Notes: a model not told the origin generated them from the letters alone. A DNA stretch of 7,472 nt from Candidatus Iainarchaeum sp. (GCA_937968065.1 CALBUD010000065.1:1-7472); one strand, 5' to 3'; counted from the first letter of the stretch, positions 1-7,472 are shown. Numbers and translations: made by a program.

Positions 1-2
1 TG

Positions 3-251
3 TTTTGGTTTATATCACATCCATTATTAATGCCATACTTATATGGTTTTATAATTCACGATTACGAATATAGTAATAAATGTGAATATAAGATAACAAG
101 ACTACAAGCTGATGAATTCTTCTTATATAATAATATACATAAATATAAAGGTAGTAAGTTAGTTTCTTTAGTTATGTATTTATGAGTGAGAATTGCAGGG
201 TATAATCATTTCAAAGCTGATTTGCCATTTGATAAGAAAACAATAAAATAA
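3..251 (+). CDS. Hypothetical protein: either the 3' end of a gene truncated by the window edge, or a complete 73-aa ORF from ATG 30
   Basis: Frame 3 has no TAA/TAG from the first base to TAA 249-251. That is 83 codons with one in-frame TGA at 183-185, which is unlikely by chance in DNA this AT-rich. I recognise no motif. Frame 2 is also open over 2..73 with a hydrophobic tail (VLVYITSIINAILIWFYNSRLRI), so the real end of the upstream gene is ambiguous. Confidence 0.4.
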
Positions 252-297
252 TATAAAAGAAAGGAAACCTATAATATTAAATAAATAATAACAGACA

Positions 298-825
298 ATG
301 GTTGCAGAAAGTAAAATAGTGTGGACTACATTTGTAATAGCTTGATTAACAATACCTATCTATTGAATAGAAGTGTTAATATTGGCATTATTCCTATATC
401 TAATAGTTCAGCTGATAGACATAATATCTTGATATATAGCTGCTAGAAAAAGACAAGCTATTGCAAGTGGTATAATTAGAGAATGACTTGTAAGTAAATT
501 TACACTTCTAGTATGAATAATGTTAGCAATATCTATAACAATATTCTTAACAACAGCTTTACAAGGACTTAATTTAACAATCTTTTGATTTCCTATTTGT
601 TACATAATAGCTATATTCCCTTTAGCTACAACTACACTTTTTATATATATGGAAATTCTATCTATATTAGAAAATTTAAGTTACATACTAAAAGGAACTA
701 GACAATGAAAATTGTTTTGAGTTATTAGCTTCTTATGAAACAAACTATTTAATGTATCAATAGATAAGTTAAGTGAAACAGCTGAAAAGAAAATAGATGC
801 TAAGTTTAAAAATAATTTTAAATAA
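298..825 (+). CDS. Phage holin, phage_holin_4 (toxin secretion/phage lysis holin)-like, 175 aa
   Basis: ATG 298 is the first start after an in-frame TAA at 289-291, and the stop is TAA 823-825. There are nine in-frame TGA codons (343, 364, 430, 484, 514, 586, 706, 718, 736). The table-25 translation has several hydrophobic helices. It also has LIDIISGYIAA, ASGIIREGLVSKFTLLV and FIYMEILSILENLSYILKG. These resemble the family-4 holin consensus as I recall it: D-Y-I-T-G, S-S-K-x-G-x-K-G-x-x-K-K and E-x-x-S-I-L-E-N. A charged C-terminal tail follows, and a peptidase gene starts directly after it. Confidence 0.8.
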
Positions 826-826
826 T

Positions 827-1585
827 ATGAAAATATATATAAAGAAAATAATTGAAGCTCTCTATTGATTATATAAGTTTTATATAACTAATGATGAGGC
901 TTTTGATGAAATAGTGAAAGACCCTAGGGATTATGAAAGTTTAGCTTGATGAGAAACAAAAGGTCTTCCGCAAAGGTTTGAATATAAACCTTATCTAGTG
1001 ACAGACCAAAGAAAGGATTGATATAGAATGAGTTGTACATCTCAGTGAACAGCAGGGGCTATTAACACTTCAACTAAATATAAAAAAGGGAAAACTTTCT
1101 ATTTACCAGAACCTTTATGGGATGATATGGTGGACAATAAAGTGGGGGACAGAAAGAGAGGTGCCTATTTAAAAGATGCTGTAGGAACAGCTTATAAGAA
1201 AGGTTGGTTTAAAGCCTATTATAGAGCCACAAGCAATGATGCTAAGAAAGAGGCTTTATATAGAGGTGATTTGATAGTTACAGGGTCAACAAAGATTGAT
1301 TGGAAAGAACTTATTAAAACAGACAATATAGTTAGAGCAGCCTGACAAGGCTATTGACACGCCTTCTATATAGTGGGGTGGAATGAGATTTGATGGATAT
1401 GTCAAAACTCTTATTGACCTGATTTTGTATTGAACCAATTTGTAATACCATATTCTCTTGCTGACGAAGTGTTATTCAATTCAACATATGCTTTAACAGT
1501 TAATGACCCAGATTGGACTAAAATAAGCAAAGGGGAATTGTTTGAAAAATATAAATTAACTAGAATGAAAAATGCCAACAAATAA
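827..1585 (+). CDS. Papain-like (peptidase C1 family) cysteine peptidase, candidate endolysin, 252 aa
   Basis: ATG 827 lies 1 nt after the holin stop. An alternative ATG at 797 would overlap the holin. The stop is TAA 1583-1585 and there are nine in-frame TGA codons. Track ORF 1127..1345 is an internal fragment of this frame. The motifs are VTDQ(x7)SC with Cys at 1034-1036, GYGHAFYIVGW with His at 1358-1360, and WICQNSYG with Asn at 1406-1408. The His-to-Asn spacing is 16 residues, as in papain H159-N175. The block resembles cathepsin-type GGHAxxxxGWG...W..x.NSWG. The endolysin role is inferred from position only. Confidence 0.72.
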
Positions 1586-1871
1586 AAAATGATATTGGTC
1601 TAAAAATTGATGAGCCAATTATAAAAAATACCAATGAACAGATAAGGCTAAAAAAGATAGAGCTGCTAGAAATAAAGCTAGAAGAGAGGCTGAAAGAAAA
1701 GGTAAAGTGAGGAAATGAGATTGAAAGCATATAGACCATATTAAACCATTAAGCAAAGGTGGCTCTAGGTCTACAAAAAATACAAGAGTTGTTAGTGCTA
1801 AAGCTAACCAAAGAGCCTGAGCTAAAATAGCTAATAAAAGAAAAGGCTCTTGATACAAATTAAAAAAATAA
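1572..1871 (+). CDS. Small, very basic HNH-like (beta-beta-alpha-metal finger) nuclease-family protein, 99 aa
   Basis: ATG 1572 is the first start after TAA 1557-1559 and overlaps the peptidase 3' end by 14 nt. The stop is TAA 1869-1871 and there are eight in-frame TGA codons. The translation includes VRKGDGKHIDHIKPLSKGGSRSTKNTRVVSAKANQRAGAK. This matches the HNH core pattern D-H-I-x-P-L-S-K-G-G-(x4-5)-N-(x8-9)-N, but it lacks the usual Cys pairs. The N-terminus is Lys/Arg-rich. It occupies the same DNA as the antisense track ORF 1619..1858. Confidence 0.55.
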
Positions 1872-1883
1872 TCTTAATTAAAA

Positions 1884-4241
1884 ATGAGATGAGAACAAAC
1901 AACTAGAATTGAAGACTTAACAGGTTGAATAAATGTTAGAGACTATCCATCTGAGATAGAGAATAAACAATTTCAAGACCTAGTTAATTTCAATTTTGAA
2001 TGAAATAAATTAGTTAGCAGTAAGGGAAAAGAAGTTAAACAAGTAACTTCTTCCCCTTTGCAGGCTATTAAAATAGATAGTAATGATTTATGGTATATAG
2101 AAGACTCAAAACTTTACAAAAGTTGAACAGAAGTTCCAGAGCTTCAATGAAGCACTATAACATTTTCTACATTATCAACTTATTGGCAACAATATGAACC
2201 TAATCTATACACTTATATAGTAATAGATTGAGTTGAATATGAAGTTAATTGAGCCACACCAGAAGAAAGGAAAAACTCTTTAGTTAATCAGCTTGATACA
2301 AATGTGTATGATGTAAGAGAAAAAAGTGTACAGGAAATATTTATAGGTAGATTTGATTTTATTGCTCCTGTAATATCTCTACCTTCTTATAGCTCATATA
2401 TATTATGAGTTGATGCTCCGTGAGCAACCTGATTAGACCGTACTTGGACTGAAATATTTTCAGACAATAAACTTAATTGAACTTGTATAGTTATTAATTG
2501 AACTCCTGTTGCTTGATTAATACAGCCTAATACAAGCTGAACATTAAGAAGTAATGCTAATACATTATTTTCTACTATGTCTTTCCCTTCAGAAAATAAC
2601 GCTGTGCAATATTATTTTGATAATGATGTTGATTTAAATATATGAGACTCTAGCACATCTCAATCAATAGGTTGGCTTTTAAATAAGGTGGATACATTAA
2701 ATTATATATCAAATTATTCAGAGGAATATAGAGGTATATATTGCTTAAATACAACAACTTCATTTTCTGTTACATTTGATTGATATACAATAAGCTGAAC
2801 AATACCTGCCTGAAATATAGCTTCAATAAGAACTCAAATTGATACTCAACTTCCTTCTTGATACTATACAGAATACACTGCGGTTAGTAGCTGATTTTTA
2901 TATCCAGACTCAGCTCCTTGAGCATTCTTTATTTATTCATCTAATTGAGTTGCAACAATTTCTTCTTTTCAATTAAATTGACTTAATAGTGCTTCTTATA
3001 TTGTATATAATAAATGATATATCACAACACCAAAAACTTTAACACAAGGAGAGCAAATAGTTATATCTTGACAAGCAACTTGAATAAGTTTTGATTGAAT
3101 AGTTGATGTTACAATAGGTAATCAAATGCAACTTTTAGTTAGTAGAGATGATTGAGGTGCGGCTGTCTTTGTAGACAATATATACAATCCAATATGAGAA
3201 GAGGCTGTATGACTTCCAACTGTATGAACTATATATAACTGAAAGATTGTTTTATGAGGATACCCTGATAATGATAATATAGTATTTTCTAAAACTTCAA
3301 CACCAGACAATCCTTTGCTTATCACTTCATTTGATTGATATGATGCTTGAGGACAATCTGTATCAGGTTGAGATAAAGGTAGGGTTGTAGGTATGACAAC
3401 TTCTGAGAATTGATTATATGTCTTTAAAGACAATTCAATATGGTACACAAATTCAGAAAAAGATAATCCTGACTCAAACTCTTTCAACTTTATATTTAGA
3501 AAGATAACTTCTAGTTGAGCTTATAGCCAATCTACTATTACAGATGTAGAACAAGATGTTTTCTATTTAGATTGGAATGAAAGAGCTGTAAGAAGACTTA
3601 GTTATGAACAAAATTTAACAACTTTAAGAGATACTGCAATATCAGATGAGATAAGAGGATTATTAGAAGACTTACCACAAGACCAAAGTTTAGCAACAGC
3701 AAACTACACTTATCCAAATTATCGCCTATATCTATCAGACCACACTTGACCAACTATAACATATCCAAATGGGAAAACATATAATACAAACAATGTATGT
3801 TTAACATATAATGTATATAATAAAAGTTGGACAAAAGAAACTCTTTGAAATGTTATTGTAGCAGACAAAGGATATATAGGAACTAACGATAATAATATAA
3901 GTGAATTAGAAAAAGGTAATATTAATCTAAATGGATTAGCTCTTACAAAAAGATATACAGAAGGTGATGATTTCATAAGAAAGAAATATAATAGAGTGAA
4001 GGTTTTAGGTAAACTAAAGCCAGAATATTGAGAAAGCCTTTCTTTCACAACTGAAATATTAAATAATAACTGAGAAGTGGTAAAGAGAGTAACACAAACT
4101 GCAACTACAGAGGAAAGAATAGATGAGAGAATACATACCTATTTCCTATCTGAAAGTGTAGAGTTTAGGTTTAGTTTTTCTGGTAAAGGTAGAGTGGAAA
4201 TATATGACCTATTCTATTCTTATAAAGCTACTAAAATATAG
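1884..4241 (+). CDS. Large phage virion-type protein of unknown function, possibly a tail, neck or receptor-binding component, 785 aa
   Basis: I checked frame 3 codon by codon from ATG 1884 to TAG 4239-4241. ATG 1884 is the first start after TAA 1875-1877. The frame has no TAA/TAG and 42 in-frame TGA codons. The protein is rich in Ser, Thr, Asn and Tyr and looks beta-rich. An (S/T)-F-D-G-(Y/I) motif occurs three times. Segments such as ENGLYVFKDNSIWYT and DVFYLDWNERAVRRLSY resemble repeated beta-blade motifs seen in phage structural proteins. The functional call is weak. Track ORFs 3122..3487 and 3719..4048 are antisense shadows of this gene. Confidence 0.75.
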
Positions 4242-4245
4242 GGAA

Positions 4246-4287
4246 AATAAGCCCTGAGAGAGCTTTTAAGTTCTTTTAGGACTTATT
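4246..4287 (+). terminator. Long imperfect stem-loop in the only sizeable intergenic gap: possible terminator, RNA processing site or regulatory hairpin
   Basis: AATAAGCC (4246-4253) pairs with GGaCTTATT (4279-4287), leaving one bulge. The inner stem TGAGAGAGC (4255-4263) pairs with GTTCTTTTA (4270-4278) using several G-U wobbles. The loop is TTTTAA (4264-4269). It begins 5 nt after the stop of the 785-aa gene. No U-run follows it, so it is not a canonical intrinsic terminator. Confidence 0.3.
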
Positions 4288-4321
4288 ATACCTGTACAAT
4301 ATAAATAATAATAAAAACAAT

Positions 4322-5335
4322 ATGAATTTTATATATAATGAAACTCTTACTTGAGTTGTTGATTGAATTAATAAAACATTTACAACACAATATGTAATAG
4401 AGAAAATTGAAGAGGTTTATGTTGGTTGAGCTCCATATAGAGGAATTACATATACAGGACAAACTGTTGTTCTTAATGATGCTCCTCCTGCCTGAAGCTG
4501 ACAACCTACTATAGATTATTTTGAGTCTACAACACCTCCTCCTGTAACAGAAAGTGATGTTAGTCTAGGGCTTATAATAAATGATGTATATGATAAACTT
4601 AGTCAAGATAGAGTGAGCGGAGGGATACCAAATGATGTTTATAAAGAAAGTCAAATTAAGTTGGCAATAACATCAGGTTGGAGAAGAATTGAAAATAGTA
4701 GAGCATTAAAAGATGTAATAAGTTCTTATAGTTTCAGAAAAGCTAAAGAATTCACATTAAAACAAAAAGACTCATCTTCTATTGATATAGGAGAACAAAG
4801 CTACATACCATCTACAGGGAAACTTTCCCTTGACAATTGAGCCATTTTTGATTATAATGGATATAGCTGATGAATAATTAGCTCTATATGAGTGATTGGT
4901 GATACAGGAGCCACATTAAGTTTTTGATATAAACTTCCTAGCTCAGTGTTAAAAGTTAGTGAAGTGAGAGTTGGTTGAACTCTTATTGAGCCTGATGATA
5001 TAAGAGAATGGACTAATAGAAAGAACACTTACTGTGTTGCTGATTGATATTTGTTTCTACCTATTACTAATAAAGAAGATGTAGTGGTAGTTAAATATGT
5101 AAAAACTCACAACATTATAGAAGAAGACACTGACTTGTTTCCTTTAGAATGGGACTACTTTGAAATGCTAAGTTATTATGCTTTATATAAAATATGTGCA
5201 TTAGTTGAAGATGATAGAACCTCTCTATTCTACCAAGAATATGAAACTATCAAAAAGCAATATAAGGCTTATAAAAGTAGACAAGTTGATTGAATTAAGA
5301 ACACATTAAAAAGTGGTGTGTTAAAACAATATTAA
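4322..5335 (+). CDS. Two-domain hypothetical phage protein, probably virion-associated, 337 aa
   Basis: ATG 4322 is the first start after TAG 4277-4279, and the stop is TAA 5333-5335. There are 13 in-frame TGA codons. The gene joins track ORFs 4613..4840 and 5051..5293, which share its frame. The N-terminus NETLTGVVDGINKTFTT fits an L-T-G-x-x-D-G-x-N-x-x-F motif that I recall from the N-termini of phage structural proteins. A Pro-rich linker follows (APPAGSGQPTIDYFESTTPPPV). The C-terminus looks helical (EWDYFEMLSYYALYKICALVEDD...). Confidence 0.72.
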
Positions 5336-5354
5336 TATATAAATGTAAAAGAAA

Positions 5355-7391
5355 ATGGCGAAAGACAATAAAGCCCTTTTAAAAGAAGCTATAGATAAGG
5401 TGGGGGCAGATAAGGTTGAGAGTGCTATTAAAGAAGCTTGACCAGAAGCAATAAGAGCAGCATCAAGAGCTATACTTAGAGATGATAATCAATGATGAAC
5501 AGCTAATAAAAATACACAAATTGAGAATGTAGCTAAATGATATTCTAGTGATAACATTTGAATACCTTGAGTTAATGTTAATGTGGAAGGTTGAACTTCA
5601 AAAGAAACTTTTGATAAAACAGAAACTATAGACCAAATTGAAACACCTGAACAAGCTCAAGACTTAGTAGTTGATACAACTAAAGAAGATATGAAAACAA
5701 CTACAGCACAAATTGAAGAAACAGAAAAAATAGCTACACAAAGAACAGAAGAAGACAAAGTTATTAAAGATGCTGAAAAGAAAGCTATTGAAGACCAAGC
5801 TACTAAAATGCAAGAGCTTAGAGATGCTTATTCAAAAGAACTTGAGGATAGTGAGGCTAGAACTAGAACACTTATAGAAGATAGACTTGAAAGAGATACA
5901 GAGCTTTTAGAAGAACAAAAACAAGCTGAGCTTAATAAACTTGAAGCTGAAAAAGAACTACAAGCAGCAAAAGATAAACAAGCTATATTAGATGCTGAAA
6001 AACAAATAGAGGTTAGTAGGCAACAATCAGCTTGGGCTTATCAAAAACTTTGATTAGGTTTTTCTTCTTGAATAATCAACACTTCTCAACAAATAGCTAC
6101 AGAAGGTGCTGAAACAATAGCTGCATTGAAAGTGCAGGCTAATTATAATCAAGCTGATATAGCTTATAAAGTGGCACAAGTGGAGTTTGAATATACAAAT
6201 TCAATTAATCAAATGATTGATAACTACACTAATCAACAAATTGAACTTGAAGAAAGTGTGAGAGATAGAATATATACAGAACAAGAAAATCAATTAAAAG
6301 ATGAAGCTGAAAAAGATAAGGCAATAAGAGAAATAGAAAAAGAATATTTAAAAACAACTAGAGCAAGAGAAGATGAAATGAGAAGAGAAACTGAAAGGTT
6401 GAGAGATAAGGCTATAACACAATCTAAACAACTTCAAACTGAGCTTAAACAAAAAGAAACTGAAAATAAAACAGCTCTTAATGAACAAATGTTAAGCTGA
6501 GAATATTTTGCACTTTCAGTTGAAGAACAAAACAACCTTATATTACAAAGTGGTATGACTAGAGAGGAAGTTGATAGAAGAATAGGTGGGTCTATATGAA
6601 ACTATGCAAATCAATTAGCACAGAATATTATGTGAAATGATTTCTTCCTTTCTGCTACAGAAGATAGTAAAATTAAAAATAGAACTAAAAGCCTAATGGA
6701 GTTTAGTTGATATACATTAGAAGAGGCAACTAGAATTGCATTAGATGAAACATTACAAAAGAATGATAAATATAAAGCTATGAAGGCTGCTGAGGCTGCT
6801 TCTGCAAGTGGTTCAGGATGAGGGTCAGTAGCATCATCTAATTTAGCTTCTAAAATATTTGCAGCAAGTGAACAGCTTGGGAGAAAAATTAGTTATTGAG
6901 ATGCTGAAAAAATTGCAAACGACCCAGAAGCTGCTGCACAAATACTAGGTCAATGAGCTTTTGAAACTTGAAGTGTAGTTAATGACCCAGACTTATGAAC
7001 TTATAGCTGAACTACCATTTTTGGGAATAAATATAAAGATGATATAACTCCTGATAATACATATTGAATATTAAAAGAGGTTGACACATTAGATATTGAA
7101 ACTTGAGCAAAAAATAAATATAAAAATTTTGCACTAGATAAAATGTTGCTAGAATATGAAAACACTAAATCAAGTGGGGTTATAGAAGGTATAATGAAAT
7201 GATATAGTGCAGTAGATAAAGACAATAAAACTCTTATAGAAGAAAAACTAAAAAGTGAATTAAAAACTAAAGATGAACTTACTGACGAAGATGAAGGTAG
7301 TGTTTATATAGATGGTAGAAAGATTAGGATTTATAATCCTTGACCTAAAACAAATACAGAAATAGGTGAATTTGATAAACAAAAAAAATAA
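5355..7391 (+). CDS. Coiled-coil-rich phage protein (candidates: scaffold, internal/ejection or tape-measure-like protein), 678 aa
   Basis: I checked frame 3 codon by codon from ATG 5355 to TAA 7389-7391. ATG 5355 is the first start after TAA 5346-5348. There are 23 in-frame TGA codons and no TAA/TAG. Track ORFs 5691..6053 and 6126..6500 are two Glu/Lys/Gln-rich, glycine-free helical segments of this one frame. The C-terminal third is mixed and includes an ASGSGGGSVASS linker. I recognise no catalytic motif. Confidence 0.75.
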
Positions 7392-7411
7392 TAATTATTA
7401 ATAAATAAAAT

Positions 7412-7472
7412 ATGGCTTTAAAATGGATAGATGGTAAATGGGTTTGGGAGGAAGAAGAAGAAAACTATAAAA
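7412..7472 (+). CDS. 5' end of a further plus-strand gene, truncated by the window edge
   Basis: ATG 7412 lies 20 nt after the previous stop. The frame stays open to the window end and reads MALKWIDGKWVWEEEEENYK. It uses TGG three times and GGT once. Only 20 codons are visible. Confidence 0.4.
   Translation, partial: MALKWIDGKWVWEEEEENYK

Follow-up and report, generated by a model that had tools for sequence, protein, structure and literature searches.

In bacteria, the reading of UGA as glycine (Gly) is known only from Gracilibacteria and Absconditabacteria (PMC8629427), and this genetic code (translation table 25, or code 25) was described in the SR1/Absconditabacteria and BD1-5/Gracilibacteria by Campbell et al. 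(2013) and Rinke et al. (2013), as cited in PMC10746230 and PMC8629427. Code-25 phages of hosts from these two groups have likewise been described (PMC10746230) and were published earlier (Borges et al.; Liu et al., 2023); that a phage can share the stop-to-Gly code of its code-25 host is already established. In a different set of gut phages the same codon is reassigned to tryptophan (Trp), and these TGA-to-Trp phages carry tRNA-Trp(UCA), a tryptophanyl-tRNA synthetase (TrpRS), and release factor 1 (RF1) (Borges et al., bioRxiv 10.1101/2021.08.26.457843). The present analysis concerns a contig of 7,472 nucleotides (nt) deposited under Candidatus Iainarchaeum sp. (GCA_937968065.1, CALBUD010000065.1:1-7472), which was analyzed at its full length and is termed the window. 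This contig very probably derives from a tailed phage with a short-tail module like that of T7 and SU10, which uses code 25 and in doing so would mirror the code of a Gracilibacteria or Absconditabacteria host.

The window shares with the published code-25 phages a dense use of TGA for Gly in essentially all genes, TAA and TAG stops, a low GC content, and no need for code-switch machinery. It differs from them in that its probable tail nozzle gene has no relative in INPHARED or IMG/VR: 50,697 GenBank phage records (INPHARED) gave no match, either to the whole window by megablast or to the C-terminal domain of the nozzle by tblastn, and a nozzle profile scan of the IMG/VR viral contigs found no relative. 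What is new here is the lineage, in comparison with the GenBank phage records and IMG/VR. As in cellular code 25, UGA is the major Gly codon of an AT-rich sequence and UGG remains Trp, although the window is a virus fragment and the defining features of that code, tRNA-Gly(UCA) and the loss of prfB, are cellular. The window also resembles the TGA-to-Trp gut phages, in that TGA occurs in frame in genes for lysis and structure and automated gene callers return table 4 for both, but the amino acid here is Gly, no suppressor tRNA was seen, and nearly all open reading frames (ORFs) of the relatives are recoded, compared with 26-71% of genes in phages that recode inside standard-code hosts (bioRxiv 10.1101/2021.08.26.457843).

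Reading frames and TGA as a sense codon

The window is the entire public contig and has a GC content of 29.9%. Under table 11 it contains 10 ORFs of at least 60 amino acids, the longest of which has 124 amino acids (6126..6500). When only TAA and TAG are taken as stops, six long frames open on the plus strand (292-825, 797-1585, 1560-1871, 1878-4241, 4280-5335, and 5349-7391), and the genes that start at the first ATG of each (298-825, 827-1585, 1572-1871, 1884-4241, 4322-5335, and 5355-7391) make up 93.4% of the window. All six genes contain in-frame TGA (9, 9, 8, 42, 13, and 23 codons, in order along the strand), for a total of 104, or one per 22 codons. They contain no internal in-frame TAA or TAG, compared with dozens of these codons in each of their off-frames. 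Five of the six complete genes end with TAA and one with TAG, and the partial ORF at the left edge also ends with TAA; the spacings between successive genes are 1, -14 (an overlap), 12, 80, 19, and 20 nt.

These counts agree throughout with a preliminary description of the window, made from the DNA alone, which had proposed that TGA is read through in every gene. The size of its longest standard-code ORF, the coordinates of its six genes, the nearly complete coding of the plus strand, and the tight gene spacing (given there as 1-80 nt) were all recovered, as were the 42 TGA of the 785-codon frame and the 23 of the 678-codon frame, neither with a TAA or TAG. Its seven gene ends (six TAA and one TAG, never TGA) likewise hold once the TAA at 249-251 is counted. 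The description had also held that frames of this length could not be due to chance. In the window, TAA or TAG is expected with a probability of 0.070 per random codon (one per 14 codons), and the probability of 785 codons without either is ∼2e-25; the longest run free of TAA and TAG is 787 codons, whereas in 1000 Markov-1 shuffles the mean of the longest run was 118 and no run was longer than 250. The long open frames are therefore not attributable to chance.

Seven related contigs were also read, of which five come from metagenome assemblies (up to 53 kb) and two are records of metagenome-assembled genomes (MAGs), namely CBFHLZ010000126.1 (L006, in the MAG AGTU_283_bin_10_strict) and the 24-kb contig CAZZPD010000016.1 (L007). 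They represent ∼100 kb of related loci and about half of each related genome of ∼50 kb. Related contigs of ∼50 kb are ERZ6863860 c_000001610570, SRR19328827_1568, SRR29965076_11184, and SRR12978832_169. Apart from the two MAG records, relatives of the window appear only in raw metagenome assemblies. In these contigs 82-100% of ORFs contain TGA, on both strands and with replication-type genes included (e.g., a reductase with 27 TGA). The proteins of the relatives share 31-76% amino-acid identity, and TGA positions are either kept or exchanged with GGN. Because of the frame statistics, the maintenance of long TGA-containing genes in the seven related contigs, and family matches that span TGA positions, the reading of TGA as a sense codon in every gene of the window, with termination at TAA and TAG only, is supported.

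The same observations bear on whether any change of code is needed, given that decayed pseudogenes, programmed readthrough, or selenocysteine insertion would also place TGA within a frame. The presence of in-frame TGA is the single feature that agrees with such an explanation. The contrast between 104 TGA and zero internal TAA or TAG, with off-frames full of both, argues against it, as do the retention of TGA or its exchange with GGN among relatives of this divergence and the family models that match across TGA positions. The density of TGA is incompatible with readthrough or selenocysteine, and an Rfam scan returned no element, including the selenocysteine insertion sequence (SECIS). An unchanged code has practically no probability on this evidence, and the earlier argument against pseudogene decay, which pointed to holin, papain-like, and HNH-like motifs spanning TGA, is upheld, with the holin and papain-like assignments verified by Pfam or profile comparison and the HNH assignment backed by PHROG matches. 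The features of the window are as follows.

3..251, plus strand: 3' end of a left-edge gene (tentative); 82 codons (3-248) with one in-frame TGA, and TAA at 249-251
298..825, plus strand: holin; 175 amino acids, with 9 TGA, 3 GGN, and 1 TGG; Pfam Phage_holin_4_1
827..1585, plus strand: papain-like (C1-type) cysteine peptidase; 252 amino acids, 9 TGA; assigned by homologue profile
1572..1871, plus strand: probable small HNH endonuclease; 99 amino acids, 8 TGA; 14-nt overlap with the peptidase gene; assigned by PHROG matches
1884..4241, plus strand: probable tail nozzle; 785 amino acids, 42 TGA, TAG stop; assigned by fold search and adjacency to the adaptor gene
4253..4280, plus strand: terminator-like hairpin; 12-pair stem and T-rich tail; consensus match
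4322..5335, plus strand: probable SU10-type tail adaptor; 337 amino acids, 13 TGA; Pfam SU10_adaptor
5355..7391, plus strand: coiled-coil-rich virion protein; 678 amino acids, 23 TGA; assigned by synteny
7412..7472, plus strand: possible start of the next gene; ATG and 19 codons to the contig end, 20 nt past the TAA of the preceding gene

In the 25 nt that precede the start codon of each of the six genes, the sequence is almost pure A/T, with no visible purine run resembling a Shine-Dalgarno sequence.

The amino acid encoded by TGA

The preliminary description had not decided between tables 4 (Trp) and 25 (Gly) for the amino acid. Four independent lines of evidence (composition, codon substitution, standard-code homologues, and profile scores) favor Gly and speak against Trp. 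The six genes contain 104 TGA, 19 TGG, and 74 GGN among 2,326 codons. Under code 4, Trp would reach 5.29% of residues (9% in the HNH endonuclease) and Gly just 3.18%, whereas under code 25 the values are 0.82% for Trp and 7.65% for Gly, which are ordinary levels; TGA is then the main Gly codon, at 104 of 178. The seven relatives have GC contents of 27-34%, and TGA accounts for 50-82% of the codons that they use for Gly. In L007, one stretch of 446 codons contains 38 TGA and two GGN.

Codon alignments were made between the window genes and the DNA of five contigs that encode homologues of the nozzle protein. In the nozzle gene itself, TGA is paired with GGN 295 times, with TGA 227 times, and with TGG six times, while TGG is paired with TGG 51 times and GGN is never paired with TGG. 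In the peptidase, HNH, adaptor, and coiled-coil genes together, TGA/GGN pairs number 179 and TGA/TGG pairs five, which brings the totals over all aligned genes to 474 and 11, respectively. To judge from these alignments, TGA acts as a synonym of GGN, and TGG columns remain TGG.

The homologues that use the standard code place Gly in the columns concerned. In the HNH endonuclease, the residues encoded by TGA at positions 49 and 51 (RK-x-D-x-KHIDH) are Gly in 103 of 119 and 95 of 119 aligned homologues, respectively, among the matches listed; ∼100 of the 120 listed homologues have no excess of Trp, and the Trp that does occur in these columns belongs mainly to other recoded sequences stored under table 4. 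In the peptidase, positions 177 and 197 (the latter in an NS[WY]G motif) are Gly in 20 of 29 and 19 of 29 standard-code-like homologues.

Profile scores point in the same direction. With Gly rather than Trp at TGA, the Pfam scores are 38.7 vs. 25.9 bits for Phage_holin_4_1, 20.5 vs. 16.6 bits for HNH_5, and 27.5 vs. 21.0 bits for SU10_adaptor. When each of the 20 residues was substituted at TGA in turn, Gly ranked first with the holin model (36.5 bits, with the runner-up at ∼30.4) and Trp ranked last (23.2 bits); only this model was informative, as the generic HNH models and a truncated adaptor segment did not discriminate among residues. For the ribonucleotide reductase alpha chain of L001 (27 TGA), the match to PDB 7agj_A scores 591 bits with Gly and 532 bits with Trp, and Gly outscores Trp in all 30 PDB matches of this protein.

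The reading of TGA as Trp (code 4), as in Mycoplasma and Spiroplasma with their phages, and in gut phages with recoded TGA, shares several features with the data. The low GC content and the excess of TGA over TGG would suit code-4 organisms as well, the score against phrog_4590 is nearly equal under the two codes (67.7 bits with Trp and 69.7 bits with Gly), and a public protein collection translates both this contig and its relatives by table 4. Set against the Trp and Gly contents that code 4 would require, the 474 vs. 11 aligned pairs, the Gly in the TGA columns of standard-code homologues, the last place of Trp in the holin scan, and the loss of ∼60 bits in the L001 reductase, these features leave code 4 with only a slight residue of probability. 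Two points weigh against the Gly reading: most of the homologues on which the codon test drew come from relatives that are recoded as well, and the independent standard-code evidence consists of a few conserved columns in the peptidase and HNH proteins and one Pfam model (that of the holin). On the sequence evidence as a whole, code 25 (UGA as Gly) fits and code 4 is rejected, and TGA evidently serves as a sense codon for Gly in every gene of the window and in nearly all genes of its relatives, on both strands.

The entries of the public protein collection illustrate a trap in the annotation of such contigs. Its models for 827-1585, 1572-1871, and 1884-4241 are identical to those given here but are translated by table 4, with Trp at each TGA, and the nozzle homologues of L001, L003, L004, and L005 are likewise stored as exact table-4 translations. 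An automated caller had thus already read through TGA on this contig, at coordinates that agree with those of the preliminary description, and had written Trp. If table 4 were applied across the window, 104 residues (4.5%) would be wrong by the codon evidence above. Table 11 shatters the genes, whereas callers that test only table 4 restore the frames but write Trp for Gly. This misreading lowers the homology scores of short domains by 6-13 bits and that of a reductase by ∼60 bits, and translation with Trp may also degrade structure prediction in conserved Gly-rich segments. A check of Gly against Trp should be routine wherever TGA readthrough is detected.

Host and source of the altered code

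Because UGA is known to be read as Gly in only two bacterial groups, and because one relative of the window lies in a MAG labeled Patescibacteria, the host is likely a code-25 Candidate Phyla Radiation (CPR) bacterium, from either the Gracilibacteria or the Absconditabacteria. Such a host (CPR/Patescibacteria) would supply tRNA-Gly(UCA) and would lack release factor 2, and the phage would mirror its code, with UGA decoded as Gly and only UAA and UAG as stops. In that case the phage itself could do without any code-switch machinery. The share of recoded genes is ∼90% in code-25 phages of code-25 hosts (bioRxiv 10.1101/2021.08.26.457843), and since 82-100% of the ORFs in the relatives are recoded, the code appears to be that of the host rather than one imposed by the phage. 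The tRNA search argues for the same origin, because neither the window nor the ∼100 kb of related loci yielded a suppressor tRNA. The preliminary description had suggested looking for a tRNA with a UCA anticodon; with ARAGORN, the window gave no tRNA of any kind, and the related loci gave a single tRNA-Met.

Alternatively, the phage might infect a standard-code host and bring its own tRNA-Gly(UCA), perhaps together with an anti-RF2 function, so that UGA would be turned into a Gly codon in the infected cell. Such a scheme would resemble the TAG-to-Gln and TGA-to-Trp systems that have been proposed to time late or lysis genes, and the window consists only of late genes (lysis and tail), which is the class most recoded in such phages. 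The binning of one relative with an Izemoplasmatales MAG, and the half of each related genome that lies outside the contigs, would also leave room for it. However, replication-type genes on the opposite strand of the relatives are TGA-dense (the reductase with its 27 TGA among them), and a phage that began its cycle in a standard-code cell could not express such genes. Furthermore, no suppressor tRNA occurs in the ∼107 kb examined, and the recoded-phage literature (PMC10746230; bioRxiv 10.1101/2021.08.26.457843) yielded no phage-imposed UGA-to-Gly system. The late-gene or lysis timer model (Borges et al.) is unlikely to describe this lineage, given the TGA-rich replication-type genes of the relatives and the lack of a suppressor tRNA in the parts seen. 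We therefore regard a phage-imposed code as very unlikely. Its more specific form, in which the lineage carries its own tRNA-Gly(UCA) and imposes UGA as Gly on a low-GC standard-code host such as a member of the Izemoplasmatales, is a shade less probable again.

Several observations count against a code-25 CPR host, or at least do not favor it. The window itself provides no evidence of a host in the form of an integration site or a host-derived gene, and no spacer search was made. One of the two MAG-borne relatives sits in a MAG labeled Izemoplasmatales; both are short, unanchored contigs. The Izemoplasmatales are not known to use code 25, and here a phage contig of low GC content was probably mis-binned. 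If the genome halves beyond the contigs encoded a tRNA-Gly(UCA), which is about as improbable as the imposed code just discussed, the mechanism would be different and the code would not. With the host read as a code-25 CPR bacterium, the lineage probably preys on Gracilibacteria or Absconditabacteria. Few phages of these two groups are known.

Arginine codon usage is skewed in the window, where none of the 89 Arg codons is CGA or CGG (77 are AGA). These two codons are also absent from most of the relatives (L001, L002, L006, and L007), while L004 has 18 CGA codons, some of them at invariant Arg columns of its nozzle gene (8230-10896). Absconditabacteria are predicted by Codetta to read CGA and CGG as Trp. 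As a means of discriminating between the two host groups, this reassignment was uninformative in a window that is devoid of both codons. It is an evenly balanced possibility that the window represents an undescribed T7/SU10-like podovirus family restricted to code-25 CPR bacteria, in which the avoidance of CGA and CGG reflects a further codon reassignment in the host.

Lysis and tail genes

In the window, lysis and tail genes form one module, which comes from a short-tailed phage. The first complete gene encodes a holin, whose score of 38.7 bits with Gly translation lies above the Phage_holin_4_1 gathering cut-off of 22.2. The product of the second gene has no direct match in Pfam, PHROG, or PDB sequence searches, but its 240 homologues (E ≤ 0.001) allowed a profile comparison. 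Cys70, His178, and Asn194 occur in that order and are kept in nearly all aligned homologues, and hhalign aligned the protein to the profile of its standard-code-like homologues at 99.9%. The homologue profile in turn matches PDB entries 3ois_A (1e-29) and cathepsin K (3e-18), and 11 of its 26 members match Pfam Peptidase_C1, while eight of 26 match C39_2. By these sequence comparisons the protein is a C1-like peptidase of the papain family (clan CA), and the label that it had been given in the preliminary description is right. The position directly after a holin is the usual place of an endolysin, and the location of the peptidase gene beside the holin suggests that it is a candidate lysis enzyme. 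Among 151 representatives of the family, 95 are Trp-rich as stored, and TGA-recoded contigs predominate. The third gene product matches phrog_4590 (4.5e-19) and ten HNH-annotated PHROGs, contains a DH...N...N motif, and has 584 homologues; its scores against the Pfam models HNH and HNH_5 (17.6-20.5 bits) are under their cut-offs.

The fourth gene encodes the probable nozzle. A protein search returned its own stored protein and 14 homologues, each of which is encoded on a TGA-recoded contig and is Trp-rich as stored, and sequence searches of Pfam, PHROG, and PDB (solved nozzles included) gave no match to known families. The AlphaFold model, made from the Trp translation, is poor, with a mean predicted local distance difference test (pLDDT) score of 58 and values below 50 over residues 438-557 (window ∼3195-3554). 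This segment includes the most conserved block, which is rich in TGA-encoded Gly that was rendered as Trp in the modeled sequence. In a Foldseek search of this model against the PDB, 22 of the 23 best matches are to chains from the tail or portal-tail complexes of podoviruses, namely T7, SU10, Kp9, P-SCSP1u, P22, Sf6, and phicrAss001, with E-values of 2e-11 to 6e-06 and template modeling (TM) scores of 0.2-0.3. These matches and the adjacency to the adaptor gene make a nozzle role probable, though not firmly so. Directly behind this gene, the sole one that ends with TAG, the terminator-like hairpin at 4253-4280 occupies the one intergenic gap of any size (80 nt).

The adaptor protein scores 27.5 bits against SU10_adaptor with Gly translation, right at the cut-off of 27, and its profile has only a weak PDB match (tail tubular protein A, E 0.23); in four relatives, its homologues adjoin a gene like that of the nozzle. 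The sixth gene product has no Pfam or PHROG match, and a PDB sequence search gave nothing useful. Homologues of this protein come after the nozzle-like gene in L001, L003, L004, and L005, and a protein of ∼1,500 amino acids follows them in the relatives. In the gene map of T7, the internal core proteins gp15 and gp16 come after the adaptor gp11 and the nozzle gp12. From its position after the nozzle and adaptor, the sixth gene product is possibly an internal or ejection protein.

Compared with the tail of T7 and SU10 (gp11 and gp12; SU10 structures 7z4b and 7z47), the window shares the adaptor Pfam match, the adjacency of nozzle and adaptor, and a beta-rich protein of 785 amino acids that matches nozzle-bearing tail complexes by fold search, as far as a low-confidence model allows. 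The large helical protein, followed in the relatives by the ∼1,500-amino-acid protein, recalls gp15 and gp16 of T7. The protein from the window has no sequence-level similarity to any solved nozzle. The window adds to the code-25 phages a lineage with a short tail, in which the adaptor and nozzle are probably T7/SU10-like and the holin gene is accompanied by that of a papain-like peptidase.

The order of the two tail genes differs between the window and its relatives. The nozzle gene precedes the adaptor gene in the window (1884-5335), whereas the adaptor comes first in all four longer relatives (L001, 3225-7341; L003, 8937-12742; L004, 7184-10896; and L005, 8989-12481). The inverted order is a local rearrangement in an otherwise syntenic module.

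At the left edge, the tentative partial ORF is the sole frame that stays open for 82 codons in the first 300 nt (P ∼0.003 for one frame), and it has no homologue in the related loci. At the right edge, the possible start of a further gene contains three TGG in 20 codons, compared with 19 TGG in the 2,326 codons elsewhere.

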